Below, in pieces: positions 7,775-60,757 of a stretch of 64,000 bases of DNA. Positions within the stretch are counted from its first letter, which is position 1; every line of letters starts with the position of its first letter. The DNA lies in the NCBI GenBank assembly GCA_038062115.1, contig JBBTXS010000007.1:5448-69447 (forward strand), read 5' to 3'. This DNA is from Patescibacteria group bacterium. Its GTDB lineage: Bacteria > Patescibacteriota > Microgenomatia > Levybacterales > UBA12049. The translations under genes were made by a program, and so were the position numbers. Below the pieces are notes generated by a model that worked only from the letters and a program-made list of their open reading frames with translations, had not been told where the DNA came from and searched no databases.

Positions 7775-8461
7775 ATGATAAAGTTAGAAAAAGTCTCAAA
7801 AAAATTTGCAACTGGAGCTTTTGGGCTTTCTGATATTAGCGTTGCAGTAGATAAAGGAGAATTTGTATTTTTGGTAGGGCCAACTGGTGCTGGCAAAACA
7901 ACAATTTTTAGATTAATCACTCGAGAAATGCTTCCGACATTAGGAACAATAATAGTAGATAATTGGGATGTCGTAAAGCTGCCTCATAGTAAGATCAATC
8001 ATCTTAGAAAAAAAGTGGGTGTGGTATTTCAGGATTTAAAACTTTTAATGGATAGGACAATATTCGAAAACACTATTTTGCCTCTTGAAGTTGCGGGAGC
8101 AAAGTCAACGGAGAGAGACAGGAAAACAGAAGAAGTGCTAGAAAAGGTTGGCATAATTAACCATAGAGATAAATTTCCAGTTCAACTTTCTGGCGGAGAA
8201 TTGCAACGGGCTGCAATTGCAAGGGCATTAGTTCTAACTCCCGAGATTGTTTTAGCAGATGAGCCAACTGGAAATTTAGATTCCGAAACCGCATTTGGAA
8301 TAGTAAAACTTTTAGAAGACATAAATAAAAAAGGGACAACAATTATTATGGCGACTCATAATACAGAAATTATTAAAAATCTTCCCAGAAGAGTTATTGG
8401 TTTAGACAAAGGAAGATTAGTTCGCGATGATAAGACTAAAAAAGAAGAAAAGAAAGGATAA
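7775..8461 (+). CDS. ftsE: cell division ATP-binding protein FtsE
   Basis: Walker A GPTGAGKTT, signature LSGGELQR, Walker B VLADEPTGNLD. Followed directly by ftsX. Confidence 0.9.
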   Translation: MIKLEKVSKKFATGAFGLSDISVAVDKGEFVFLVGPTGAGKTTIFRLITREMLPTLGTIIVDNWDVVKLPHSKINHLRKKVGVVFQDLKLLMDRTIFENTILPLEVAGAKSTERDRKTEEVLEKVGIINHRDKFPVQLSGGELQRAAIARALVLTPEIVLADEPTGNLDSETAFGIVKLLEDINKKGTTIIMATHNTEIIKNLPRRVIGLDKGRLVRDDKTKKEEKKG

Positions 8462-9362: not shown

Positions 9363-10601
9363 ATGATTTTAAGGATAAAAAAATATGGCGCTTATCTAAT
9401 TTTAACTGTTGTATTAACATTAGTTCTTACAATCGTTAGCAATAATTTTACATACGCCGAAGATTCTCCAACCCCAACCCCTACTCAAATCCCCAATCAA
9501 GTTCATGTAGAAGGATGTCCTTACAATAATTTAAGTAAATGCGTTCAATTTTTTCAAGAAAAAGTTAGTGAGTTAAATAAGCAGGGAAAAACGCTTGCAT
9601 CCCAGATTGCTGTGATGAGTAATCAGATTCAATTAACCGAGGCAAGAATTAAAGCAACAAAACAAGAAATTTCTGATCTAACTTTAGACATAGACACGAC
9701 AACAAAAAAAATATCACATCTTCAAAATTCATTAAATAGCCTGACAGAAGTTCTTTTAAATAGAATTGTTGCAACATATGAAACTAGCAGGGTTCAGCCT
9801 TTTGAAATTCTTTTGTCATCTAACAATTTTTCTAATTTTTTTTCTCGCTTAAACTATCTTAAGATCGCACAAGCCCACGATAAGAAGCTTATATATGCAA
9901 CCCAGCAAGCAAAAAATGATTATGCAAATCAAAAAGAAATTTTTGAAAACAAAAAGAAAAAAGTTGAAGCTCTTAAAAATCAACTAGAAGCATATACTAA
10001 CCAACTTGCTCAGGAGAAAAAAGATAGGGAATCACTTTTAGAGGTTACTCAAAGTGATGAAAAAAGATACCAGACATTGTTGGAGAAAGCAAGAGCAGAA
10101 CGAGAGGCAATTGAGAGAGTCCTTACTTCTATTCAGCTTAAAGATGGGAGCCCCATTAAAGAAGGAGAAGCAATTGCTGTTGTTGGCAATACTGGCTATC
10201 CACACTGTTCAACTGGACCACACCTTCATTTTGAGGTTAGGAAAAATGGAGTCTCTGAGAACCCAAACAATTATTTAAAAGCTGGAATATCACTTAAATA
10301 TAGCTACGGAGAAGATAAGTATTATTACTACGGCACGATTAATCCGCAAGGCAATTGGAACTGGCCGCTTAAGGAAACGATACAAATTAATCAAGGATAT
10401 GGTTCTCATGGATATGCAAAGTCTTTTTATCCAGATGGAATACACCATGGGATTGATATGGATTCTGACTCTTCTATTATTAAAGCTCCAAAAGACGGAA
10501 CCCTTTATAAAGGGACGACAACTTGTAAAGGAGCAGCTATAAATTATGTAGCAATTGATCATGGAGATGGTATTGTTTCTTGGTATTGGCACGTACAATA
10601 A
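9363..10601 (+). CDS. coiled-coil M23/LytM metallopeptidase (EnvC/PcsB-like FtsEX partner) with swapped motif order
   Basis: Long coiled coil. GNTGYPHCSTGPHLHFEV (HxH block) precedes HHGIDMD...NYVAIDHGDGIVSWYWHVQ* (HxxxD block). Confidence 0.8.
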   Translation: MILRIKKYGAYLILTVVLTLVLTIVSNNFTYAEDSPTPTPTQIPNQVHVEGCPYNNLSKCVQFFQEKVSELNKQGKTLASQIAVMSNQIQLTEARIKATKQEISDLTLDIDTTTKKISHLQNSLNSLTEVLLNRIVATYETSRVQPFEILLSSNNFSNFFSRLNYLKIAQAHDKKLIYATQQAKNDYANQKEIFENKKKKVEALKNQLEAYTNQLAQEKKDRESLLEVTQSDEKRYQTLLEKARAEREAIERVLTSIQLKDGSPIKEGEAIAVVGNTGYPHCSTGPHLHFEVRKNGVSENPNNYLKAGISLKYSYGEDKYYYYGTINPQGNWNWPLKETIQINQGYGSHGYAKSFYPDGIHHGIDMDSDSSIIKAPKDGTLYKGTTTCKGAAINYVAIDHGDGIVSWYWHVQ

Positions 10602-11490: not shown

Positions 11491-11546
11491 GTGTCATTCC
11501 CAGCTTGACTGGGAATCTAGATTCCCGCTTTCGCGGGAATGACGTG
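11491..11546. repeat. TGTCAT...ATGAC hairpin repeat (two-hairpin short form)
   Basis: GTGTCATTCCCAGCTTGACTGGGAATCTAGATTCCCGCTTTCGCGGGAATGACGTG. Outer IR at 11463-11487 / 11548-11568. Confidence 0.75.
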
Positions 11547-33350: not shown

Positions 33351-33768
33351 TTACTTGATTAGATTTATGTGCAAATCATTAAATGACGAATTATCTTTTC
33401 TAATAAGCTCAAGCTTCTTTATTCGTGAACCCGCTTTAATTTGTTTTTCTCTTCGTATAGCTTCATATATTGTATCAAATATTTCAAGATATACTAGCTT
33501 AGTTACATTATGACTGGGTCATAATTGTCATTTCGAGCTTGCCGAGAAATCTCCTTCAAAGAGATTCCTCGACTCGCTACACTCGCTCGGAATGACAAAT
33601 GAGTATTTATGTCCCAGTCACAGTTACATTATAGCGTGAAGTAAAACTAGATACCATTTTGTCTTTATGTTCGTACATGCGTCTTATTAGATTATTAGTG
33701 ACGCCTGTATATAAGACAGTATTTGTAAAATTCGTAGCAATATACACAAAATATTTTCTTGTATACAT
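33351..33768 (-). pseudogene. GIY-YIG nuclease (UPF0213-like) gene split by a 111-bp MITE
   Basis: The N-part MYTRKYFVYIATNFTNTVLYTGVTNNLIRRMYEHK...SRYNVT ends in the insert. The C-part KLVYLEIFDTIYEAIRREKQIKAGSRIKKLELI...HINLIK* (own translation, stop 33351-33353) resumes in a frame shifted by 1. Removing 121 bp restores one 98-aa ORF. Confidence 0.75.
33511..33621. mobile_element. MITE copy with TIRs and 10-bp target-site duplication
   Basis: TSD AGTTACATTA at 33501-33510 and 33622-33631. TIR TGACTGGGTCATAA (33511-33524) versus TTATGTCCCAGTCA (33607-33620), 13/14 complementary. The core is TTGTCATTTCGAGC...GGAATGACAAA. Confidence 0.8.
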
Positions 33769-40886: not shown

Positions 40887-40971
40887 TTTGTCATTCCGAG
40901 CGAGCCAAGTCTGACTTGGCGAGTCGAGGAATCTCTTTGCAGGGGATTTCTCGACAAGCTCGAAATGACAA
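40887..40971. repeat. hairpin repeat, close relative of the 33511..33621 MITE core
   Basis: TTTGTCATTCCGAGCGAGCCAAGTCTGACTTGGCGAGTCGAGGAATCTCTTTGCAGGGGATTTCTCGACAAGCTCGAAATGACAA. Also shares flanking AAATACT.A and ATTAT with the 33.5-kb copy. Confidence 0.8.
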
Positions 40972-41023
40972 TTATTCCCAATCATACCTTGAGTATAGGG
41001 AAAAGTTGAGGTACAATGCAAGT

Positions 41024-44285: not shown

Positions 44286-44975
44286 GTGAATCATGATAGT
44301 CTTAATTCTTTAAGATCAAAGAAGATATCAGAAACATTTAGGAAGAGGAAAATTGACAATTTTAAAAAGTGGCGTGAAGAAATGAAAAGGACAGGCAGAA
44401 CGCCTAGATACCTATCATTTATTAGATCAAAAGATTTAGCTGAATATATTGGTGTCGTACTTGGAGACGGCAATATTAGTAGCTTTCCAAGAACTGAAAG
44501 GCTCATAATAGTTGGTAATCTTAATAATGCTGGTTTTATTCGACAGTATAGTTTATTGACTGAAAAAATTTTTGGAAAAATTCCAACAGCTACAAAGATA
44601 TCAGGCAGTAACGCTATTAGAATAAGTATTTATCAAAAATTCATATCGAAAAGGTTAAACATTCCATCAGGAGATAGGGCAAAATATATTTTTAAAATTC
44701 CTGCATGGATATTAGGCAATAAGAATTATATAGTTAGTCTTTTGAAAGGTTTATTTGAAGCGGAAGGGTCCTTGTCTATCCATAAAAAAACATGCACGTA
44801 TAACTTTCAGTTCAAGAATAGTAATCAAAGTTTACTAAAGACAGTTGCAGATAGCTTAATATATTTAGGGTTTCACCCTGAAATAAGAACAAACTGCACT
44901 AGATTAAGAAGAAAAAAAGAAGTAGAATCCTTTAAGTACTTAATTAAATTCAGAGAATATCGATCATCCATCTAA
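44286..44975 (+). CDS. free-standing double-motif LAGLIDADG homing endonuclease
   Basis: LAEYIGVVLGDGNIS and LLKGLFEAEGSLS motifs. GTG start. Ends 7 nt before tRNA-Gln. Confidence 0.75.
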   Translation: MNHDSLNSLRSKKISETFRKRKIDNFKKWREEMKRTGRTPRYLSFIRSKDLAEYIGVVLGDGNISSFPRTERLIIVGNLNNAGFIRQYSLLTEKIFGKIPTATKISGSNAIRISIYQKFISKRLNIPSGDRAKYIFKIPAWILGNKNYIVSLLKGLFEAEGSLSIHKKTCTYNFQFKNSNQSLLKTVADSLIYLGFHPEIRTNCTRLRRKKEVESFKYLIKFREYRSSI

Positions 44976-44982
44976 TTAAGAT

Positions 44983-45056
44983 TGCCGAGTCGTCTAATGG
45001 TAGGACACGACCCTCTGGAGGTCGCTATTGGGGTTCGAATCCCTGCTCGGCAGCCA
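44983..45056 (+). tRNA. tRNA-Gln (anticodon CTG), CCA encoded
   Basis: Hand-folded cloverleaf: acceptor TGCCGAG/CTCGGCA, anticodon arm CGACC-CTCTGGA-GGTCG, T arm TGGGG-TTCGAAT-CCCTG, discriminator G, then CCA. Confidence 0.85.
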
Positions 45057-52228: not shown

Positions 52229-52261
52229 GAAGTAATTCCTGTTCTAATTAGTCGCTTATTT

Positions 52262-52366
52262 TAGTAGACCTATACGAAAAAATTCGAACCTCTTTCATAT
52301 TAAAAAGGTAGTCGCTCTCTTCGTTCGCTCCTTCTATTTTATATTGCTCGGCCTTCGGCCTCGCTC
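52262..52366 (+). repeat. island left junction (core TAGTAG) plus arm W
   Basis: tagtagACCTATACGAAAAAATTCGAACCTCTT...ATTTTATATTGCTCGGCCTTCGGCCTCGCTC. An inverted copy lies at 58866-58962; the first ~31 and last ~32 nt are identical and the middle has diverged. Confidence 0.8.
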
Positions 52367-52947
52367 TTTTGTATTTTTTGCGATTGGACCGACGACTATG
52401 TGCGCGATTTTTTTTGGAACTCCAAAATGGATTATATCAGGTTTTTCTTTAATCCGTTTCAACCCACCCACCCGATTATGGTGGCGGCGACCCCGCCTTT
52501 GGGCGCTAGGTCCCGCTTGGGCGGGACTCGCCAATGTTTTTACTTTTCTAAAATCCTATACAGTCTCTTCCCAACTCCAGACCAATTTAGTATCGTTGCG
52601 CCGTCGGCGGGGTACTTCCGCTTTTCGCCCCCGCCGCTGTTATTTTACCCCTTCCTGTTCATGAAGCATCGTCCCGCCCTTGGCGGGACTTGTGGTAGCT
52701 CGGTTGGCTCACCCGCCTGTTTTCTAAAACCATAGTATGATTTCGGCGGGTTCGCGTTGGTCGGGCTACCTATCCAAAACATATCTTACGTTAAAGTTTT
52801 TCTGACGGTAGCCCTCCCTTTAGCAAAGATTCCATGATGGGGCGGGGTCGGCGGACGCCGCCAAAACTAATCGGCCAGAATGGTGGAAATTGGCCGTCCG
52901 TCTTTAATATTTCCCATGAAAGTGCTAGAATTCAAAGTAAACAAGAT
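52367..52947. ncRNA. GC-rich, hairpin-dense non-coding block (candidate structured RNA)
   Basis: Repeated GTCCCGC(C)-YTTGG-GCGGGAC hairpins at ~52510-52528 and ~52671-52689. A 9-bp stem GGTAGCTCG/CGGGCTACC (52694-52702 / 52762-52770) encloses CCCGCC...GGCGGG. Only overlapping low-complexity ORFs on both strands. Confidence 0.35.
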
Positions 52948-53787
52948 ATGGGAAAAGTTATTTCAAAAATAGATGCCATAAAGTTGTCAGGTCTTGACGA
53001 TAAAACATTTGATAACTATTTTAAAAATGCAGGTGAATTTGCTTGTCTTCCAAGAGAGGGAAAGACACGATTTCTTTTTGACGAAGACAAATTAAAAAGA
53101 TGGAAGGAAGATTACGAATGGAGGACTGTAGAGCTTGATTTTCAAGATTATGCTCTTTGCTTGGACTTTGCGCTAGCACAGCATTTTCGAGGGTATGTTT
53201 TATCTGATTGGGGTACTGGCCGCCAAAGAGAGTTTGGGCAGAAAATAACAAACTGGATAAAGGGTCAGCTGGGCGAAGTTGCTGTTAAGAAGTTTTTTAA
53301 AAAAGAGTTTGGAGTTGAAATAGAACTTGATTTTGATATCTATTCAAAAATTGTTCCGCAGGATATTATTGGAGTCTTTGAAAATGGGAAAATGAGGAAA
53401 CCTAAAACAGGAGTTGGCATAAAATCATCAAAGCCAAAAAGCGCATTTCTAGTGTTGGGATCAAACGAAATAAAACTTCCTGAAAGGAGATCGGATATTT
53501 ATGTCTATTGCAGACCAGATATTCCAGACGACCATCTGCTTAGATTAACAAAAGATCTGATAGTAAAAGCAGTAAAAGATAAGCCCCATTTCTCAAGGTA
53601 TAAAGATCAGTTGCCTGATTTTACAAATATTCCTTGTGAAATAGTCGGGTGGTGTAGGCCAGCAGAGTTAGAAGAGGTTTCAGGAATACCTGGACAAGAA
53701 TTCGATAATGGAACAAGATTTGTCAAAAAGTCCGGTTTACTCCATCGAAACAAGGACGAATGGAAAAAGCTTATACGAATGCTGTAG
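52948..53787 (+). CDS. putative type II restriction endonuclease (partner of the adjacent C5 methyltransferase)
   Basis: Convergent with dcm, overlapping by 17 nt. ELDFDIY...PQDIIGV...GVGIKSSKPKS is PD-(D/E)XK-like by eye. The ORF track N-terminal 38 aa fall in the GC-rich block; the ATG is at 52948. Confidence 0.45.
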   Translation: MGKVISKIDAIKLSGLDDKTFDNYFKNAGEFACLPREGKTRFLFDEDKLKRWKEDYEWRTVELDFQDYALCLDFALAQHFRGYVLSDWGTGRQREFGQKITNWIKGQLGEVAVKKFFKKEFGVEIELDFDIYSKIVPQDIIGVFENGKMRKPKTGVGIKSSKPKSAFLVLGSNEIKLPERRSDIYVYCRPDIPDDHLLRLTKDLIVKAVKDKPHFSRYKDQLPDFTNIPCEIVGWCRPAELEEVSGIPGQEFDNGTRFVKKSGLLHRNKDEWKKLIRML

Positions 53788-54916
53788 CTTGAGGAAAGTT
53801 AAATATCTCAATTTGCCTAATTTGGCGGTTTAATACGTTTCCATTTGTGAGTTTTGCAGGAATCCATTCGTATTTAACTCCGGCAAATGTTTTTAGCACG
53901 GCTTCAACTATACCTTTAGCGGCTTTAGGAGATACAGCCATTCCTATTTGTTTCCTAACACTTTCTTTTGATCCCTCAAAAACAAAAGTGTCAGGGAAAG
54001 TCTGTATCCTAGCTCTTTCTCTATTTGTTAATGCTCTGTTTTCTTTCCAATGGTAGCCATGAGTGCCGCCCCCGCCGCTGCCAGTTAATGTATAGGACGG
54101 TTTGTCTGGATGAAGCCTTTTATATATCTGGCTCATTCTAGCTCCTTTGACATTTAGTCTTAAATGTTCAGGCAATCCTTCGAACCAGACATTCTCACCG
54201 GGCGGGATATACTTTAGTCTTTCAACAACCATTTTACCTTGAGCCGTAATTTCATTATTCGAAGCGTCTTGCGGAATAGGAGGATTGTCTATAGCTTCTC
54301 TTGCAGAAACATATCTGCCAGCAGTTGTAGGAATTGGTACTTTAAACTCTAATCCAAGATCTTTTCTAATTCCTATAATTACAACTCTATGGCGGGCTTG
54401 CGGAACCCCGTACTCTTCAAATTTATATAGGTGGGGAGTTAGCCTATATCCTTTACCGGCATTTTCTAAATCTTTAAGAATTTTATTAAAAGCTCCGCCG
54501 CTGTTGGCGCTTTGCAGACCGCTTACATTTTCGGCAATGAACCATTTTGGATTGTGAATATTTATTGCTTTTACGCCGTAAGTATAAAGAGGACCGTATT
54601 TTCCGTTAAAGCCTTTTTGTTCTCCCACTATGCTGAAATCATTGCATGGAAATCCAAAAGCCAAAACATCAAAGGATGGCACTTTTTTGAAATCAATTGT
54701 TTCTACAGGAGCGCAGACGACATTTTTTAAATTTCCTCCGTGAATATTTCTTGCGTAAGTTCTGCAGGTGTCTTCATCGATATCATTAGCCCAGACAGGC
54801 ATCATTTTGTATAAATTGTTGTTAGAGTCTTTTACAGCGGCAAGCATTGCTCCCAGAGATAGTCCCCCTGGTCCGCAAAATAACTCGGCAAGTTTAAATA
54901 TCTTTGTATTTTTCAT
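53771..54916 (-). CDS. dcm: DNA (cytosine-5)-methyltransferase
   Basis: Motif I FCGPGG, motif IV GFPCNDFS, motif VI AENV, motif VIII QARHRV, C-terminal RIQTFPD. Confidence 0.9.
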   Translation of the reverse strand: MKNTKIFKLAELFCGPGGLSLGAMLAAVKDSNNNLYKMMPVWANDIDEDTCRTYARNIHGGNLKNVVCAPVETIDFKKVPSFDVLAFGFPCNDFSIVGEQKGFNGKYGPLYTYGVKAINIHNPKWFIAENVSGLQSANSGGAFNKILKDLENAGKGYRLTPHLYKFEEYGVPQARHRVVIIGIRKDLGLEFKVPIPTTAGRYVSAREAIDNPPIPQDASNNEITAQGKMVVERLKYIPPGENVWFEGLPEHLRLNVKGARMSQIYKRLHPDKPSYTLTGSGGGGTHGYHWKENRALTNRERARIQTFPDTFVFEGSKESVRKQIGMAVSPKAAKGIVEAVLKTFAGVKYEWIPAKLTNGNVLNRQIRQIEIFNFPQATAFV

Positions 54917-55310
54917 AGGCAGTTCTTAATATAAGATAACATCGTTTTGCATTATTTGCTATTTCATGCTCCCAAAATCTTAATACTTTAATATTTCCAT
55001 TTTTTAGTTCTAGATTTATCTTTTTGTCTCTGCTGACATTATTTTTAATTTTTCTGTCCCAATAATCATTTTGCGATTTAGGTCTGATAAAATCAATGGG
55101 ACATTTGTGCCAGAAACAGCCGTCAATAAATACAGCTAATTTTTGTTTCGGAAAATAAATATCCGGTTTTCCTGTAATTTTTGATTTTATCCTATATCCT
55201 TTTAACCCTTTTTTCCATATAAATTTTCTAAATTTTAGCTCAACTAGAGTGTTTGAGCTTTTTATCCGAGACATATTATATTTTCTCTGCTTCGGCGTAT
55301 GGGTATCCAT
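54894..55310 (-). CDS. vsr: very short patch repair endonuclease
   Basis: 138 aa. MSRIKSSNT, GKPDIYFPKQKLAVFIDGCFWH, LRFWEHE motifs. Overlaps dcm by 23 nt. Confidence 0.85.
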   Translation of the reverse strand: MDTHTPKQRKYNMSRIKSSNTLVELKFRKFIWKKGLKGYRIKSKITGKPDIYFPKQKLAVFIDGCFWHKCPIDFIRPKSQNDYWDRKIKNNVSRDKKINLELKNGNIKVLRFWEHEIANNAKRCYLILRTAYEKYKDI

Positions 55311-55342
55311 GCCGAAATTATAGACAAAAAGCTTATTAAAAA

Positions 55343-55966
55343 CTAGTTCTTTCTTAGCAAATCTATAAATTTACCCTGTATTACGAATTGTTTTCCAATT
55401 TTGGGTTGATAAGCTGGATCATCACTTTCTGGTAAAAGCATAACGTAATCCTGTAGTCGTTTAAATCTTTTTAGCGTTGCTGTTTCGTCATCTGGGTCAA
55501 AAGCGACTACGATATCTCCATTGTTAGCACTATTTTGCGATGCGATTATAGCTAAATCGCCTGGATTTATTCCCGCTTTTAGCATACTTGTTCCTTTGAC
55601 TCGAAGTATGAAGACATCTCTTTGGCCTTTTGCTAAGAGTAGGGGAATCTTTTTATAACCTTCAATACTCTGTTCAGCTAAAGAACCATATCCAGCCCTT
55701 ATCTCGCCAAGAATAGGAACATTAATCATAGTTTCTTTATTAATCTTTGTGGGCTTACGTAGTATTTTAATTGCCCGGCGAGAATTTTTTTCACGCTGAA
55801 TATAGCCTAGTCTCTGCAGTTTATCTAATTGCAAAACAATTCCGCGCGTGGACTTATTCCCAATGATGGTCTTGAGCTCTGTTATTGAAGGGGAATAGCC
55901 ATTTTTATTTTGGAATTGAATAATAGTTTGTAAAACTTTTTCTGTTTTTGAAAGTAAATACTGCAT
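55343..55966 (-). CDS. lexA: LexA-like repressor (wHTH + S24 autopeptidase)
   Basis: LexA DNA-binding domain NGYSPSITELKTIIGNKSTRGIVLQLDKLQRLGYI. Cleavage-site-like GEIRAGYG, catalytic VKGTSML and TLKRF. Confidence 0.8.
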   Translation of the reverse strand: MQYLLSKTEKVLQTIIQFQNKNGYSPSITELKTIIGNKSTRGIVLQLDKLQRLGYIQREKNSRRAIKILRKPTKINKETMINVPILGEIRAGYGSLAEQSIEGYKKIPLLLAKGQRDVFILRVKGTSMLKAGINPGDLAIIASQNSANNGDIVVAFDPDDETATLKRFKRLQDYVMLLPESDDPAYQPKIGKQFVIQGKFIDLLRKN

Positions 55967-56055
55967 AATAAGTGGTTATTATTTACCACCTTGCAAATAG
56001 TACCACTATCTGTAATAATATGTCAATAAGCAAAATAAAGGCAGGTGAATAAAAG

Positions 56056-56322
56056 ATGGTTTACGCAATAACATATGATTTAAACAAGCCTGGACAGAAT
56101 TATCCTAGTTTATATAGTACCATAAAAAGACTAGGCCACTGGATATGGCCACTACAAAATCTTTGGTTCATAGATTCAGAGAATGGAGCACAAGAAATAG
56201 CAAATGAAATACATACAGTTATTGATCAAAATGATTCTGTTTTTGTAGTAAGAGTTTATCGTGGTCAATGGGGTTCGTGGATGTCAAGTGAAACAAATCA
56301 ATGGATTAATGCAAGGACATGA
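56056..56322 (+). CDS. small alpha/beta hypothetical protein (88 aa), divergent from the lexA-like gene
   Basis: MVYAITYDLNKPGQNY...LQNLWFIDSENGAQEIANEIHTVIDQNDSVFVVRV. The beta-alpha-beta-alpha-beta pattern is reminiscent of ferredoxin-like/Cas2-like small proteins (weak). Confidence 0.4.
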   Translation: MVYAITYDLNKPGQNYPSLYSTIKRLGHWIWPLQNLWFIDSENGAQEIANEIHTVIDQNDSVFVVRVYRGQWGSWMSSETNQWINART

Positions 56323-56568
56323 GGATGTAAATAAATAATGGGATTGTCACAATATTAAATAACAAAACAAGGAAGTTTCCGTCAAGTCAAGCGAGAGGGA
56401 TGAGCTTACCAGCAACTTAGCAAAAGATTGTCCTGAATTTAATAAAGTTAGATCTAGTACAAAGTTAGAAGCTTTAAGAAAAAGATTCGATGTTGCTTCT
56501 ATAAACAATGTTAGAGAGGAATTGAGAAGGTTGGATGAATAGAATTTTTCTCTTGGCGGTTTCTTTCA

Positions 56569-56592
56569 TTTTAATTTGACTTCCTATCCACA
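56569..56592 (+). repeat. 24-nt direct repeat DR1 upstream of the RT gene
   Basis: TTTTAATTTGACTTCCTATCCACA versus DR2 TTTTAATCTGACTTCCTAGTCACA (21/24). Contains TTGACT followed 17 nt later by TATTTT, a possible promoter. Confidence 0.6.
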
Positions 56593-56616
56593 GAAGAGTA
56601 TTTTATCAACTAGTTT

Positions 56617-58014
56617 ATGGATAATTTCAATGAGTTCAGAAAATACTTTAATAAAACCTTTTGGAAAGTTTTTAGTAATAAAAATATTTTTATAGATAAC
56701 CCATCTAATAAAGAAAAGTTTACAAAAAGTGTTTTTAAGGAAATCTATTTTAAAAAATATTACCCTTCCATCCCTCAACTATATATAGATATTAATAAAG
56801 GCAACGGTGTAACAAGAATAATTCCAGTTTTTTCACTTAAGGACTATTGTGTTTATTATTATTGTATAAAAAAATTAGAAACGAAAATTGCATTTAATAG
56901 AATTCCAAATACTTTTGGAGGATGGACATTAGGCGGTTTAATCAGAAAAAACGAAGAAGACGAAATGATAAAAAGAAGAATGGATTACAATAAATTTGAA
57001 GATTTTATGGCTGAGCTAAACGGTATTTCCGTTAGTCAACATTCATTTAATCCTTTAGCGTGGGCTAAGGCATACGGCGATTTGAACTCTAAACTATACG
57101 CCTCTTCTAAAGAAAAAAAATATAATTTTGTTGCTGAGCTGGATATATCAAACTTTTATGATTCTATTCGTTTAGATATTTTAGAGCTTAAGATAAGAGA
57201 GATTTCTGATGATAAATATTCAGAGATTATTGCTATACTTTTCCTATTTTTAAATTATTGGAATCGAAAAACTAATTCATACAATAAACAAACAGTGGGA
57301 ATACCGCAAGATGCTCTTGGAGATTGTTCTCGAATTTTGGCAAATTTTTATTTGCAGTCTTACGACAAATTCGTTTATGAAATTTGCAAAAAAACGGGAT
57401 GTAAATACTTAAGATATGCAGATGACCAATTTATTTTTTCTAATAGCCAAGAAGAATTAAAATATCTGATATATATGATGTCTAAAAAATTAAATAGTAT
57501 GGGCCTTTCTGTGAATCAAAAGAAAGTCAGAATTTTTCCCACGGCAGGGTTAATAGAATATCGTGCTTTTAAAATATTCGATATTGTGAAGTCTAGCAAA
57601 GATAAGAATGATAAGGTAAAAGTTGAAACGCTTGTCAATAAGTATATTGAGCTAGTCAAGGAGAACAAGTTGGCAAAGATTAAGGATAATGGAAAATCTA
57701 TTTTAACCAGAATTTTATTTTGTCCTGCTCTTAAGAGAATTGATGTGAGCAAAAGAAATACTATTGTCAATTTCTTAATAGACGAAAACTACTTAGAGTT
57801 TTGCAGAACTAACCATTTGCTAAAAATATATGATTTACTAGAAAAAAATCAAAAAGGAAAATTTGTTCTTAAATTGAAAAAACTTACTAAAAAATTAATG
57901 CACAACTCTTTTCATTATGAGGTTTTAGGCTTTTTTGATAAATATAGCATTCATACTAAGCTTATAAAGACAAGATTGAAAAAATTAGAACAAGATCTCA
58001 ATCTTTTAATCTGA
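56617..58014 (+). CDS. stand-alone reverse transcriptase (Abi/UG-like, not group II or retron by visible features)
   Basis: RT motifs GVTRIIPVFSLKDY (1/2), ELDISNFYDSI (A), GIPQDALGDCSRILANFYL (B), LRYADDQFIF (C, YADD), GLSVNQKKVRIF (D/E). A ~150-aa helical C-terminal extension. No maturase or endonuclease domain. Confidence 0.85.
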   Translation: MDNFNEFRKYFNKTFWKVFSNKNIFIDNPSNKEKFTKSVFKEIYFKKYYPSIPQLYIDINKGNGVTRIIPVFSLKDYCVYYYCIKKLETKIAFNRIPNTFGGWTLGGLIRKNEEDEMIKRRMDYNKFEDFMAELNGISVSQHSFNPLAWAKAYGDLNSKLYASSKEKKYNFVAELDISNFYDSIRLDILELKIREISDDKYSEIIAILFLFLNYWNRKTNSYNKQTVGIPQDALGDCSRILANFYLQSYDKFVYEICKKTGCKYLRYADDQFIFSNSQEELKYLIYMMSKKLNSMGLSVNQKKVRIFPTAGLIEYRAFKIFDIVKSSKDKNDKVKVETLVNKYIELVKENKLAKIKDNGKSILTRILFCPALKRIDVSKRNTIVNFLIDENYLEFCRTNHLLKIYDLLEKNQKGKFVLKLKKLTKKLMHNSFHYEVLGFFDKYSIHTKLIKTRLKKLEQDLNLLI

Positions 58015-58027
58015 CTTCCTAGTCACA
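58004..58027 (+). repeat. 24-nt direct repeat DR2 overlapping the RT stop, upstream of the nuclease gene
   Basis: TTTTAATCTGACTTCCTAGTCACA. TATAAT at 58043-58048 lies 8 nt before the nuclease ATG. Confidence 0.6.
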
Positions 58028-58056
58028 AAATTTTCTTAGTGGTATAATCATTATTA

Positions 58057-58734
58057 ATGTCACAACTATACAAATTGAGTCCCTCGGATTTTGCCTATTT
58101 GTGGGAAGATTGTAAGCATTGTTATTACCAGAAAGTAAAATTTGGCATTACCTATTCTAGTCCGTTTCCTGCGATGTTTGGTAGGATTAATAAATTGCTT
58201 CAGACTTCAATCATGGGAATGAATCTTCAAGATGTTCATCCCGATCTTCCGAGCGGAATCATTACGGTTCAGGAAGGATTTATGAAATCAAAACAAATTC
58301 CGGGGACAAACACTTATCTAAGCGGAAGGTTTGATATTTTGACAAAACTAGACGATGGGACACACGCTATTATTGATTTCAAAATTACCAGCCCTGATGA
58401 AGAAAAAATCCTCAAAAAGTATTCGAGTCAACTGCACGCTTATAAATTCGCATTGGAAAATCCACTGGAAGGAGAACCGATTAAAATTTCAAAAATGGGG
58501 GCTGTAAGCATAAATCCTGATGAGATGAAGTTAGTTAATGGAAAAGTAGTTTTTACAGCTACGCCTACATGGTATCCGATTGAGGAAAATATGGATAATT
58601 TCTACAATCTTATTCACGAAATTTCGACAGTTCTAAGCGGGCCGTTACCTCCAACAGCTGATACTTGTAATTTATGTATTTACAGAAAATCTTTTGAACC
58701 AAAAGCTAAAATTGTAGACGATATTCCTTTTTAA
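58057..58734 (+). CDS. Cas4/RecB-like PD-(D/E)XK nuclease with four Cys
   Basis: GRFDIL...HAIIDFKIT (D...DxK), QLHAYKFAL (QxxxY), CKHC near the N-terminus and CNLC near the C-terminus (possible Fe-S or Zn site). Confidence 0.7.
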   Translation: MSQLYKLSPSDFAYLWEDCKHCYYQKVKFGITYSSPFPAMFGRINKLLQTSIMGMNLQDVHPDLPSGIITVQEGFMKSKQIPGTNTYLSGRFDILTKLDDGTHAIIDFKITSPDEEKILKKYSSQLHAYKFALENPLEGEPIKISKMGAVSINPDEMKLVNGKVVFTATPTWYPIEENMDNFYNLIHEISTVLSGPLPPTADTCNLCIYRKSFEPKAKIVDDIPF

Positions 58735-58865
58735 TCCGCTATTGATATAGAAAATCTCAGTTGAAATCTTCTTTGGAACTGCTATATTAAAATCGTAGAG
58801 TGGACATTTGAATTTTGGAAAAATTTTTGCGTTTTTTACCTTGCGGGAACGAGCCGACAGTTTTT

Positions 58866-58962
58866 GAGCGAGGCCGAAGGCCGAGCAATATAAAATAGTA
58901 GGAGCGGAAGCGACTACCGCTTTAGAATAAAAGAGGTTCGAATTTTTTCGTATAGGTCTACT
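58866..58962 (-). repeat. inverted copy of arm W plus core (hybrid junction B)
   Basis: The reverse complement reads CAGTAGACCTATACGAAAAAATTCGAACCTCTT...ATTTTATATTGCTCGGCCTTCGGCCTCGCTC. Continuous with the X arm at 58958-59056. Confidence 0.8.
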
Positions 58963-59056
58963 GAAACAGATTTCTCTGAAGCCAGAGCTGGGGAGGTCGG
59001 GGCAGAAGGGCGGGAATGGAGCTCCGCAAAGCCCAATTTGAAAGAAACGGAAAGCT
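58958..59056 (-). repeat. left copy of a 99-bp perfect inverted repeat (arm X)
   Basis: Exact reverse complement of 60515-60613 by manual comparison. Imperfect homology extends about 20 nt further (59057-59073 vs 60494-60514). Confidence 0.85.
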
Positions 59057-59106
59057 ACCGGTAAAAAGAAGTGAAAAAACGCAAAAATTAAGGAACAAGA
59101 ACTACT

Positions 59107-60723
59107 ATGAAATATATAGCATATTGCAGGAAATCAACGGACGAGAAAAACAAACAAGTTCTCTCGATTGACCAGCAAATAGCAGAATTAAAAGAATTTG
59201 CTACCAGAGAACATTTAGAAGTAGTTGATTTTGTAACAGAAGCAAAAACTGCAAAAGTTCCGGGGAGAGAAAAATTCGCGCAGGTTTTAAAAAGAATAGA
59301 AAAAGGAGAAGCTCAGGGAGTTGTCTCATGGCATCCGGACCGTCTGGCAAGAAATTCTATCGACGGCGGAAAAGTTATTTATCTTTTAGATACCGGAAAA
59401 CTTTTGGACTTAAAATTTCCGTCTTTCTGGTTTGAAAGTACTCCTCAAGGAAAATTCATGTTGTCAATCGCATTTGGACAATCCAAGTATTACGTTGATA
59501 ATCTTTCCGAGAATGTTAAAAGAGGCATGAAACACAAGCTACGTGTCGGTTTATGGCCGTTAAAAGCTCCTTTAGGATACATAAATGATTCGAACACAAA
59601 AACAATTCAAATACATCTGGAAACCTCTCGGATTATAAAGAAAGCATTCCAGCTTTTTGCAGAAGGTAATAAATCCTTCAGAGAGATATCTCTTTTTCTT
59701 AGTAAATTCAAAATTGATCGAGGATGGAAAGGTAAAGACGATAGGCCATTTCGTATAACACGAATTAAGAACATGTTTACAAACAGATTTTACATCGGAA
59801 TTATGAAGTACAACGGTGAATACTATCAGGGATCGTATAAATTATTCATTACGAAGAAATTATTTGACGAAGTTCAAAAGCAAGTAGACCGAATAGAGAG
59901 ACCAAGATATAGAGGGCATAATTTTGCATTTAGCGGATTTGCGCGTTGCGGAGAATGCAAAGCTTCTATTACATCAGAACAACACTTAAAGAAATATAAA
60001 AATGGAACTTCCCAGACGTTTATGTATTACCGCTGTACAAAAAAATTAAAACCCTGTACTCAAAAATATGTTACGGAGGATAAATTAGAAAATCAGATAA
60101 GGGAAATGCTGGAAAAAGTATCGTTTCCGCAAGAATGGGCTGCTGATTGGTATAGTTGGTTAGACAGAGACGAAAAAGAAGAATTAACTGTAGCCGAGGA
60201 TAATATTGGAAAGTTAAGGGTTGAAGTGGAAAAAGTAGACAAAAGACTGAATTTTCTTTTGGATAGTTTTCTTGATCAAGTTATTGATTCCGAGATTTAC
60301 AAGAAAAAGAAGAACGAATTATTCGAAGAAAAATTAAAAATAACTGAGGAAATTGAAAAAATAAAAGAGAGTGGCTCAAGTTGGCTCGAACCTATGAGAG
60401 AGTTCGTAGATAGGGCTCTGCAGAGCCAAAAAATCGCACGTGCAAAAAATACAAAAGAAGATTTGGCAATCTTCGCAAAAACTGTCGGCTCGAACTTCTT
60501 TTTAACCGATCGGCAGCTTTCCGTTTCTTTCAAATTGGGCTTTGCGGAGCTCCATTCCCGCCCTTCTGCCCCGACCTCCCCAGCTCTGGCTTCAGAGAAA
60601 TCTGTTTCAGTAGCCCCAAGGGGAGTCGAACTCCTGCCTGCGGCAAGCGAAGGACCGATCTTCACCTTAACCTGCCCGCCGCTTGTGCCCCCAAGGGGAT
60701 TCGAACCCCTGTTACAAGGTTGA
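59107..60723 (+). CDS. large serine recombinase
   Basis: Resolvase catalytic start YCRKSTDEKNKQVLSIDQQ...VSWHPDRLARN, recombinase domain, zinc ribbon CGECK...YYRCTKK, coiled coil. The last ~70 codons read through arm X, a pseudo-tRNA and into antisense tRNA-Glu, so the true C-terminus is uncertain. Confidence 0.85.
   Translation: MKYIAYCRKSTDEKNKQVLSIDQQIAELKEFATREHLEVVDFVTEAKTAKVPGREKFAQVLKRIEKGEAQGVVSWHPDRLARNSIDGGKVIYLLDTGKLLDLKFPSFWFESTPQGKFMLSIAFGQSKYYVDNLSENVKRGMKHKLRVGLWPLKAPLGYINDSNTKTIQIHLETSRIIKKAFQLFAEGNKSFREISLFLSKFKIDRGWKGKDDRPFRITRIKNMFTNRFYIGIMKYNGEYYQGSYKLFITKKLFDEVQKQVDRIERPRYRGHNFAFSGFARCGECKASITSEQHLKKYKNGTSQTFMYYRCTKKLKPCTQKYVTEDKLENQIREMLEKVSFPQEWAADWYSWLDRDEKEELTVAEDNIGKLRVEVEKVDKRLNFLLDSFLDQVIDSEIYKKKKNELFEEKLKITEEIEKIKESGSSWLEPMREFVDRALQSQKIARAKNTKEDLAIFAKTVGSNFFLTDRQLSVSFKLGFAELHSRPSAPTSPALASEKSVSVAPRGVELLPAASEGPIFTLTCPPLVPPRGFEPLLQG
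60515..60613 (+). repeat. right copy of the 99-bp perfect inverted repeat (arm X + core AGTAG), inside the recombinase 3' end
   Basis: AGCTTTCCGTTTCTTTCAAATTGGGCTTTGCGGAGCTCC...CAGAGAAATCTGTTTCAGTAG. Confidence 0.85.
60614..60645 (-). other. degenerate tRNA-Glu-like 3' fragment (T arm + acceptor)
   Basis: The minus strand GCAGGCAGGAGTTCGACTCCCCTTGGGGCTA resembles the tRNA-Glu 3' end GTAACAGGGGTTCGAATCCCCTTGGGGGCA. No matching 5' acceptor strand. Confidence 0.45.
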
Positions 60724-60757
60724 GAACCTTGCGTCCTAACCGCTAGACGATAGGGGC
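60686..60757 (-). tRNA. tRNA-Glu (anticodon CTC), no encoded CCA
   Basis: Hand-folded: GCCCCTA/TGGGGGC acceptor, CAAGG-TTCTCAA-CCTTG anticodon arm, AGGGG-TTCGAAT-CCCCT T arm. 72 nt. Confidence 0.85.

Follow-up and report, generated by a model that had tools for sequence, protein, structure and literature searches.

The stretch of DNA considered here (hereafter, the window) comprises 64,000 nucleotides from the genome of a Patescibacteria group bacterium (assembly GCA_038062115.1, contig JBBTXS010000007.1, positions 5,448 to 69,447 of the forward strand). Near its right end, a gene for a large serine recombinase (LSR; 59107–60723, plus strand, 538 aa) lies between the arms of a long inverted repeat, and its reading frame runs into an intact tRNA-Glu(CTC) on the opposite strand (60685–60757; ARAGORN; Rfam, 66 bits). 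Comparison with relatives indicates that the gene belongs to an integrated mobile element, predicted to occupy 52263–60613, that relies on the LSR and inserts at the 3′ ends of tRNA genes.

The inverted repeat and the recombinase

The sequence-only reading of this locus had described a perfect 99-bp inverted repeat with imperfect inner homology, and both are confirmed. Positions 58958–59056 are the exact reverse complement of 60515–60613 (blastn of the flanks: 99 nt, 100%), and a gapped alignment reaches inward to 59072 and 60494 with a 5-nt indel. A repeat search of the window returned slightly longer arms (58955–59060 and 60511–60616; 106 nt, 98%); a perfect inverted repeat of 99 nt in 64 kb is far above chance expectation. 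The left arm is referred to below as X and the right arm as X′. Immediately outside X lies a further arm, W, whose divergence from a distant partner, W′, had likewise been noted and is real: 58866–58966 matches 52259–52366 in inverted orientation at ~87% identity, with indels. The account of the reading frame also stands. The frame leaves the right arm through a 23-nt tRNA 3′ fragment (60614–60636) and continues into the antisense tRNA-Glu; read across the left junction instead, it would end in ...SVSVDLYEKIRTSFILKR and a stop.

Three contigs covering the entire locus, each assembled independently from a different Hainich groundwater sample, reproduce this arrangement at 99.9–100% identity, and a contig from a fourth sample has an identical right-hand junction through the entire right arm. 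Every arm-spanning contig (the three whole-locus contigs and L178) shows a single orientation, and all five contigs that include the gene product share the same junction. An exact lookup in ~15 billion proteins found no match to the flipped- or circle-state protein of the window element. The suggestion of ongoing inversion at this locus is therefore not upheld.

The enzyme is an LSR by its domain content, which combines a catalytic resolvase domain (PF00239, E 7e-21, residues 4–148, with Ser10 in the motif YCRKST), a Recombinase domain (PF07508, 172–261), and a zinc ribbon (PF13408, Zn_ribbon_recom, 275–335). A heptad-rich segment visible at ~345–430 is a candidate coiled coil. Pfam gives no HTH_7 match in the recombinase, and its architecture is not that of the Hin/Gin-type invertases. 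The sole PDB match is to a catalytic domain (E 6e-8), and the NCBIfam cut-offs are not reached for XisF (97.6; cut-off 375), CcrB (97.3; 900), or IS607 (38; 110); as judged by sequence, the LSR is far from structurally solved or curated families. Its two most invariant C-terminal motifs, KIARAKN and KTVGSN, are conserved as DNA too, third codon positions included. The conserved protein ends near KTVGSNFFLTDR, and the last 36 aa of the integrated-state form are antisense-tRNA junk. A candidate native C-terminus after a 17-nt repeat (AKTVGSFPQGKK...) was rejected, as homologs keep ...KTVGSNFFLTDR and continue through X′.

A family of related elements

The recombinase falls in a very large Patescibacteria clade, with at least 580 relatives in each of the two collections sampled. 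Eighty relatives from species-representative genomes and 80 from metagenomes were fetched, at 40–73% amino-acid identity. Their general layout runs from host DNA to W′, cargo, W–X, and an LSR gene ending in X′, followed by an antisense tRNA. An inverted repeat of at least 40 nt, with one arm 50–200 nt upstream of the start and the other at the 3′ end of the gene, was testable at 58 genome and 54 metagenome loci and is present at 52 and 51 of them; the arms are perfectly identical in 29 and 22 of these, respectively, with a median length of ~98 nt in the genome set. Next to the 3′ arm lies an antisense tRNA (at least 12 identities) in 55/64 genome and 50/60 metagenome loci, or 105/124 together, and the abutting types are diverse (Glu, Lys, Leu, Arg, Val, Pro, Tyr, Trp, Gly, Gln, Ser, Ile, Ala, Thr, Asn, and Phe). 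The ~100 nt outside the upstream arm, W, has an inverted partner 0.7–8.9 kb upstream in 37 relatives, mostly at 96–100% identity. Records with this layout include megabase contigs and chromosome-level assemblies (L037, L047, L067, L070). Minimal elements carry 0.53–0.62 kb of cargo beside the LSR and its sites, and no second conserved protein.

Between nearest-neighbor loci, the median identity of the arms is 68% and that of the LSR gene 71.5%, whereas the two arms within a locus are 99–100% identical. This contrast argues, at the level of sequence, that the arm duplication is ancient and that its copies are continually homogenized, a form of concerted evolution. The earlier idea that perfect arm identity reflects recombination between the arms accords with this pattern, which extends across more than 100 loci. 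The companion idea of a very recent duplication, or an oddity of this one locus, does not; the layout is that of a standard integrated element of the family.

Attachment sites

In the family, the downstream arm ends at or in the 3′ terminus of the tRNA, and a conserved motif of the form nnnTTTACGAAAAAATTCGAAC is found outside the upstream arm (as reverse complement) in every locus. Relative to the arm boundary, the hexamer TCGAAC starts at +12 in the tRNA half-site, B′ (37/46 loci), and at +16 or +17 in the conserved motif, P′ (27 of the 31 loci in which the motif was found), an outward shift of 4–5 bp. Work on the LI integrase reportedly puts the spacing difference between P-type and B-type half-sites at roughly 5 bp. 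P-type and B-type half-sites differ in domain positioning, a difference on which serine-integrase directionality rests (PMC5499577); the shift in TCGAAC fits this model, and the P and B sites are assigned on that basis. The sites named attL, attP2, and attR below share, across the family, only a 2–9 nt core ending at the arm boundary, as would suit a 2-bp crossover.

So assigned, the right repeat arm and the tRNA-Glu 3′ fragment of the window read as attR (P-O-B′), and the distant arm W′ beside fabD as attL (B-O-P′; 52260–52366, plus strand), its junction directly after the FabD gene. The left arm and W together appear to form a complete second site, P-O-P′, here named attP2; this site is in inverted orientation, with a conserved promoter on one side and, ~50 bp downstream, the LSR start codon on the other. 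The half-sites are distributed as expected of hybrid sites: attL (52260–52366) has P′, attR (60494–60636) has P, and the spare copy has an intact P-O-P′. A core, AGTAG (52263–52267, plus strand), is common to attL and attR. In attP2, the P′ arm is W (58867–58957, minus strand), and the P arm is X (58958–59072, minus strand; perfect over 58958–59056, with the imperfect inner extension reaching 59072). The P arm of attR is X′ (60494–60613, plus strand; perfect over 60515–60613). Candidate crossover dinucleotides lie at the arm boundaries, at 58958–58959 (minus strand) in attP2 and, as AG, at 60612–60613 (plus strand) on the attR side. The B′ half-site (60614–60684, minus strand) begins with the tRNA-Glu-like fragment (60614–60636), which holds the acceptor 3′ strand and T-arm, is 91% identical to 60689–60711 as a direct repeat, and is not called as a tRNA. 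The element's neighbor is thus a 23-nt tRNA-Glu fragment with a 48-nt spacer, and not the intact tRNA-Glu, which lies 75 nt off; comparable tRNA fragments occur at the attR of L128, L130, L144, L147, and L162.

The LSR is predicted to recognize the T-arm sequence of its tRNA targets. Identical P and P′ arms are found at tRNA-Arg, tRNA-Leu, and tRNA-Tyr in different genomes (L011, L014, L017, L020). The spare site, too, appears to be recombination-competent and able to recombine with a tRNA itself, as L041 and L149 have both arms joined to tRNAs at the same crossover position. A sense tRNA upstream is seen at three loci: L041 and L071 among the 122 with at least 400 nt of upstream flank, and L149, which has less. 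L071 is a fixed flipped copy, with the sense tRNA upstream, X′-O-W′-r′ downstream (r′ is described below), and decayed arms. Self-inversion of the recombinase segment, as the sequence-only reading had envisaged, has thus happened at least once in the family, with no sign of it at the window locus.

Relative to the LSR, the cargo is invariant in orientation across ~50 pairwise comparisons. Free flipping of the cargo as a frequent event was rejected, all conserved cargo ends being co-oriented with the LSR. A two-step irreversible inversion of the FLEx type, via r/r′ and X/X′, was also set aside; no locus has its predicted end state. At one further contig, L170 (Logan SRR32696702, same strain background as the window), the fabD-side attL carries the copy-2 variant of W′, with five synonymous differences and indels. 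This implies that in nature the W arms undergo conversion or (cargo) inversion with each other, as read from a k=31 assembly whose contig ends in the arm.

Several relatives occur in tandem arrays or within one another. In the arrays L104 and L167, newcomers appear to insert beside the tRNA, and the recombinase of the older element is fused to the P′ arm of its neighbor, regaining a native-type tail. The "fused" double LSRs of ~900 aa (P0004, P0005, P0010; L064; L167 3416–6151) are elements inserted in the LSR gene of another element. The insertion point is at the codons AFGQSKYY, where the DNA, GGnCAGTCGAAATAT, mimics a tRNA T-loop; such an insertion disrupts the recombinase gene of the recipient. 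Many contigs, additionally, end at or inside the arms (L009, L010, L012, L021, L026, L029, L030, L040, L054, L061, L171–L174, L177, and others), which makes these elements a recurrent cause of assembly breaks in Patescibacteria.

Evidence on the free form comes from contig topology. Terminal overlap identified no circular contigs among those of the relatives. The contig L165 reads X(inner)-LSR-X′-O-W′-cargo-promoter-leader, with both ends in the repeated attP2, and L164 represents the same assembly graph in the other isomer; neither includes host DNA. Both would fit circles or tandem copies that hold both attP copies. For the window element, the predicted diagnostic junctions are CTGTTTCAGTAGACCTATACGAAAAAATTCGAACCTCTTTCATATT for the circle and ...AGTCGCTTATTTTAGTAGCCCCAAGGGGAGTCGAAC for the empty site.

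A C-terminal tail encoded by the attachment site

The LSR reading frame appears natively to cross attP into the P′ arm, which would double as the codons of a conserved tail (...[LVI][YF]E[KQ][IV]RTxF). In the P′ half-site, TAC GAA AAA ATT CGA ACn supplies the codons YEKIRT. In the window, the first copy of the arm, W′ (52268–52366, plus strand), encodes the tail DLYEKIRTSFILKR, which stops at 52309–52311, ahead of a GC hairpin and a T-run. Family-wide, the P′ motif TACGAAAAAATTCGAAC is kept, and the frame of the tail and its stop are likewise conserved. Read across an attP-type junction (X′-O-W′), the LSR frames of relatives give tails of the form ...LYEKIRTxF (as in DLYEKIRTSFILKR, NVFEQIRTYFKG, VIYEKVRTYFL, and CAFEKIRTDFAQNL), and the stop falls +35 to +50 nt past the crossover in ~45/50 loci, with a mode of 44. 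At integrated junctions (X′-O-tRNA), the frame yields unrelated junk peptides with stops scattered from +6 to +474 nt. In the metagenome set, wherever the strict tail motif was found in any frame, it was in the LSR frame (34/34 loci); loci without the strict motif have looser xRTxF variants in nearly all cases.

The pattern of substitution is of the same kind. Between arm W, whose tail codons lie on the minus strand, and copy 1, all five differences inside the tail open reading frame (ORF) are synonymous; across the loci compared, differences between the two W′ copies number 15 synonymous and eight non-synonymous. Among the 120 closest database proteins, six carry the native tail; these are encoded in tandem arrays or on small contigs free of host DNA. 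Comparison with homologs, proposed earlier as a way to locate the natural stop, thus places it ~44 nt past the crossover of an attP-type junction. Since the tail is conserved in frame with that stop and the integrated junction gives junk, the "alternative" C-terminus is, on this comparison, the native one. As P′ doubles as tail codons, integration would remove the conserved tail and leave antisense-tRNA junk in its place; only the last ~14 codons are exchanged. For the window LSR, the full-length form ending in DLYEKIRTSFILKR would measure 516 aa, compared with 538 aa when integrated. The earlier notion of alternative C-termini is, therefore, meaningful as to the alternative itself, a conserved in-frame native tail. 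It needs revision as to the means, the exchange being primarily by integration and excision (attP to attR) and not necessarily by inversion.

Promoter, leader RNA, and short repeats

Upstream of attP2, the window has a promoter-like site, TTGAAA-16-TGcTATATT (58761–58788, plus strand; scan score 10/12, extended −10), pointing to W–X and the recombinase. The extended −10 promoter is conserved in the family, with TGnTATAnT placed 7–9 nt before a leader RNA in 17 relatives; its position upstream of attP2 places attP2 within the LSR leader. The leader RNA is ~95 nt long and pseudoknotted (P1, P2, P3), with conserved UUUUUUAAU and GGACA, and occurs in L013 (~9530–9630), L005, L006, L011, L015, L016, L018, L022, L027, L045, L046, L049, L050, L053, L056, L059, and L064. 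Covariation supports the structure (31 pairs, 91% paired, 21 changed on both sides; 0/500 shuffles reach the score), and a conserved U-G pair assigns it to the plus strand. A small minus-strand gene (MAQPV...) beside attP2 was considered and rejected, the same covariation and U-G pair identifying it as this plus-strand structured leader. Rfam returns nothing for the attP and leader region of L013 at E≤1, and the leader may be a new regulatory RNA. In the window, it is mostly deleted, leaving a remnant at ~58795–58821 (plus strand).

Short inverted repeats additionally link the 3′ coding region of the LSR to the attP flanks. The segment r′ (60476–60495, plus strand; KTVGSN codons, containing TCGAAC) is a DNA motif conserved in nearly all loci, and its inverted copy, r (58850–58866; KTVGS codons), directly abuts the far end of arm W. 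Most loci have a second, perfect inverted repeat of 16–28 nt. The segment q′ (60430–60452, plus strand; KIARAKN codons), within the LSR gene, has an inverted complement in u1 (52367–52415), a q-like motif that follows W′ and opens the cargo; the same relation, u1 = rc(q′), is found in L165. Finally, u2 (58822–58837) is an inverted copy of u3 (GAAAAAACGCAAAAATT; 59073–59089), which, with the ribosome-binding region, fills 59073–59106 (plus strand) ahead of the LSR gene. The inverted copies of the KIARAKN and KTVGSN segments are perfect and flank the attP copies. In its layout, the spare attP resembles the 3′ end of the gene in circularly permuted form.

Cargo and other features of the window

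The left end of the cargo is a non-coding region of ~470 nt (52367–52833) with a GC content of ~45%, compared with ~35% in its surroundings. Conservation over the first 100–450 nt of cargo extends to L015, L033, L038, L039, and L045, invariably in one orientation; the non-coding region could be an RNA or origin-like. The variable cargo that follows (52834–58734) is a defense island by its ORFs, Pfam, and PADLOC. It encodes a type II restriction endonuclease (52834–53787, plus strand; PADLOC REase_II, 1.8e-19), a Dcm methylase (53771–54916), Vsr (54894–55310), and a LexA-like S24 protein (55343–55966), the last three on the minus strand. On the plus strand are a weak Cas2-like ORF (56056–56322), a DRT reverse transcriptase of class UG13b (56617–58014; PADLOC RT_UG13b, E 2.6e-130), and a Cas4-like PD-(D/E)XK nuclease (58057–58734; PADLOC Cas4, 6.8e-7). 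The UG13b reverse transcriptase is thus flanked by the weak Cas2-like ORF and the Cas4-like nuclease, near type II restriction–modification, Vsr, and LexA-like genes. In the relative L013, a sub-threshold match to the Rfam RT-16 RNA (28 bits, E 0.3) lies at 7810–7942, upstream of a cargo reverse-transcriptase gene.

Elsewhere in the window, an inverted pair at 33521–33577 and 40919–40975 (57 nt, 95%) spans 7.3 kb, and hairpin-like direct repeats of the form TGTCATTCC...GGAATGAC lie at 11492–11543/12672–12723 and 29475–29532/30478–30535; all are unrelated in sequence to the att arms. An ORF at 44286–44975 has LAGLIDADG-like motifs (LGDGNIS, LFEAEGS), with a weak intein-related protein as its only database match, and ends 8 nt before a tRNA-Gln (44983–45056). 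No known RNA gene in the window reaches the Rfam gathering threshold beyond the two tRNAs.

Discussion

Taken as a whole, these observations are best explained by a tRNA-targeting LSR element with an inverted spare attP and a tail-coding site, a reading that we consider probable. Such an element would exist as a small circle with two inverted attP copies, built like the yeast 2-micron plasmid, from which full-length LSR would be expressed by the promoter reading through attP2. Integration would proceed via the attP at the 3′ end of the LSR gene, and excision from the same integrated state; the simplest life cycle would therefore alternate between the integrated state and a circle of the same isomer. 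Recombination or gene conversion between the two copies of each arm would maintain their identity. How direction would be set is a more tentative matter. It is plausible, at somewhat less than even likelihood, that the tail swap alters the activity or directionality of the LSR; if so, no separate directionality factor would be needed. For the spare attP, our best guess, offered with similar reserve, is a site in the leader where binding of the LSR would autoregulate the enzyme and which would also stay live for secondary recombination, passively homogenized from the selected copies. More doubtful is the combined proposal that direction is set without a separate factor, the full-length enzyme of the circle integrating and the tail-less integrated form excising, with the spare attP as operator, flip substrate, or both.

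Several observations weigh against this interpretation. In the relative L166, the leader immediately precedes the LSR and an intact attP follows it, with no spare copy, so that the spare site cannot be indispensable. An operator role needs only ~50 bp, and alone leaves the retention of both ~100-nt arms unexplained; conversion from a selected copy could maintain them. The topologies of L164 and L165 fit tandem repeats equally well, and the assembly graph cannot separate the isomers. Lookups for the circle junction and the full-length-tail protein of the window element returned neither, and a search for an empty attB, made by exact matching of the FabD and PIN proteins on either side, yielded no contigs other than those with an occupied site or a break in the arms. 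The window copy itself may be crippled, given that its leader RNA is mostly deleted, W and W′ have diverged, and a tRNA fragment sits at the junction.

Among the alternatives, the one closest to the sequence-only reading is a regulated on-switch, in which host homologous recombination or the LSR itself inverts 59057–60514, restoring the native tail and stop and placing the LSR gene downstream of the tRNA promoter. The arms are perfect, ~100 nt long (a length that would suit RecA), and evolve in concert; inversion would restore exactly the conserved tail, whose spare codons are intact, all five differences there being synonymous. L071 is a fixed flipped state, and the attL of L170 implies W-arm conversion or inversion in a natural population, though in a k=31 assembly that ends inside the arm. 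Yet L071 is the only clearly flipped locus among ~120 with readable orientation, all contigs of the window strain show one orientation with the flipped protein absent from the protein collection, and the cargo-to-LSR orientation is invariant. The flipped state would, moreover, have its promoter drive antisense RNA, and a circle excised from it would lack an LSR promoter. We consider such a switch unlikely. A selection for complementarity at the RNA level is improbable: W-O-X in the 5′ leader would pair with X′ (and W′ in the circle) at the 3′ end in a perfect duplex of 100–200 bp that limits translation or triggers RNase III. The promoter and structured leader upstream of attP2 make it probable that the repeat is co-transcribed with the LSR, and both the 3′ coding end and the tail region fall within the repeat; pairing, however, tolerates G-U and mismatches where the arms are strictly identical, and would explain neither why the repeat ends at the crossover dinucleotide nor why the full P′ half-site is retained.

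A function specific to the circle is highly improbable on present evidence, whether flipping of the 2-micron kind that amplifies copy number, or a single strand that folds W′/W and X/X′ into a double-stranded attP as in CTX phage. Circle or tandem contigs do have two inverted attP copies dividing a recombinase segment from a cargo segment, and both arm pairs are long and perfect. The minimal elements, though, have no replication gene, integrated copies show a single cargo-to-LSR isomer, and serine recombinases work on duplex DNA, through concerted double-strand breaks (PMC5499577). Nor are they known to recombine attP with attP. Replication slippage, cruciform excision, and a folded single-stranded attP were considered as well and are at odds with the chemistry of serine recombinases. 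Little can be said for treating 58958–60613 as an independent transposon of the IS type, with the 99-bp repeats as termini to which a transposase binds. A single recombinase gene does lie between long inverted repeats, the right one overlapping its 3′ end, and contigs often break at the gene edges; but what adjoins the left arm on its outer side is not host DNA but the P′ motif conserved in the family, which has its own inverted partner kilobases away, there is no target duplication, and the cassette stands alone only between two convergent tRNAs (L041, L149), a situation better explained as rearrangement at attP2. An assembly artifact or very recent local duplication, finally, has almost no probability left. 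Metagenome assemblers can make inverted joins, and perfectly identical arms might suggest one; but the arrangement recurs in independent assemblies from several samples and at more than 100 loci from many studies and assemblers, in which the arms vary between genomes yet stay identical within each. The chimeric join that had been named as a possible explanation is thereby ruled out.

The preferred reading, a tRNA-targeting LSR element with a spare attP, has partial parallels in several known systems. Phage and integrative-element serine integrases (phiC31, Bxb1, A118/LI Int, SPbeta SprA; also XisF, CcrAB, and TnpX) share its catalytic, recombinase, and zinc-ribbon domains with a coiled-coil region (a candidate one in the present family), the short quasi-palindromic attP, the small core common to attL and attR, and the difference in P and B half-site spacing. 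The present family, however, is distant from them in sequence, targets the T-arm and 3′ end of many tRNAs, has its attP inside the 3′ end of the ORF where it encodes the tail, keeps a second, inverted attP upstream, and has minimal elements without an evident directionality factor. Archaeal integrases of the SSV1 type have attP within the coding sequence and target tRNAs, and in mycobacteriophage BPs integration truncates a gene, there the repressor; both systems use tyrosine recombinases. The family resembles them in its attP within coding sequence, its tRNA target, and a protein altered by integration, but differs in using a serine recombinase, in swapping only the ~14 last codons, and in keeping a spare intact site.

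Invertible segments offer a further comparison. In Salmonella, hin lies inside the H segment, and inversion of the Mu G segment gives variable C-termini, so that a recombinase within its own invertible segment, which had been thought unusual, has precedent. Hin, Gin, and Cin are small invertases that carry a C-terminal HTH and act at 26-bp sites with the help of a Fis-dependent enhancer, and both orientations are common. Like them, the family has a serine recombinase gene between inverted repeats that hold its sites, and inversion would swap the flanking fusion; unlike them, its enzyme is an LSR, its arms are ~100 nt, and one orientation dominates. The yeast 2-micron plasmid relies on FLP, a tyrosine recombinase, with identical sites and equimolar isomers, and has an origin and partition genes. 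The resemblance lies in a circle, for the family a candidate read from contig graphs, split by two perfect inverted repeats that carry recombinase targets, with the recombinase in one segment; FLP chemistry, identical sites, equimolar isomers, an origin, and partition genes are not shown in the family. Tycheposons are small cargo elements at tRNA genes that form tandem arrays and carry defense or adaptive cargo, a minority of them using large serine recombinases (bioRxiv 10.1101/2020.12.28.424599). They are mostly tyrosine-recombinase elements of Prochlorococcus, and that paper describes neither an internal inverted attP nor tail coding (bioRxiv 10.1101/2020.12.28.424599). In full-text literature searches, we came across no LSR element described as having an internal inverted attP or an att arm that codes for a tail.

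Patescibacteria have tiny genomes, and their mobile elements are poorly characterized; the family described here is abundant among them. Given its defense cargo and its location in tRNA arrays, it probably provides a major path for gene flow. Its recombinase is unusual in several respects: a site arm that codes for the tail, loss of that tail upon integration, a conserved inverted spare attP in the leader, and no obvious directionality factor. A T-arm-based target rule would explain the breadth of tRNA targeting. If direction is set by the tail or the spare site, this would be a new and compact way to reverse serine-integrase reactions, in minimal elements of ~2.5 kb with one protein. Should control by the tail prove true, such elements would represent a single-protein, self-regulating module for integration at, and excision from, tRNA genes, widespread in Patescibacteria.

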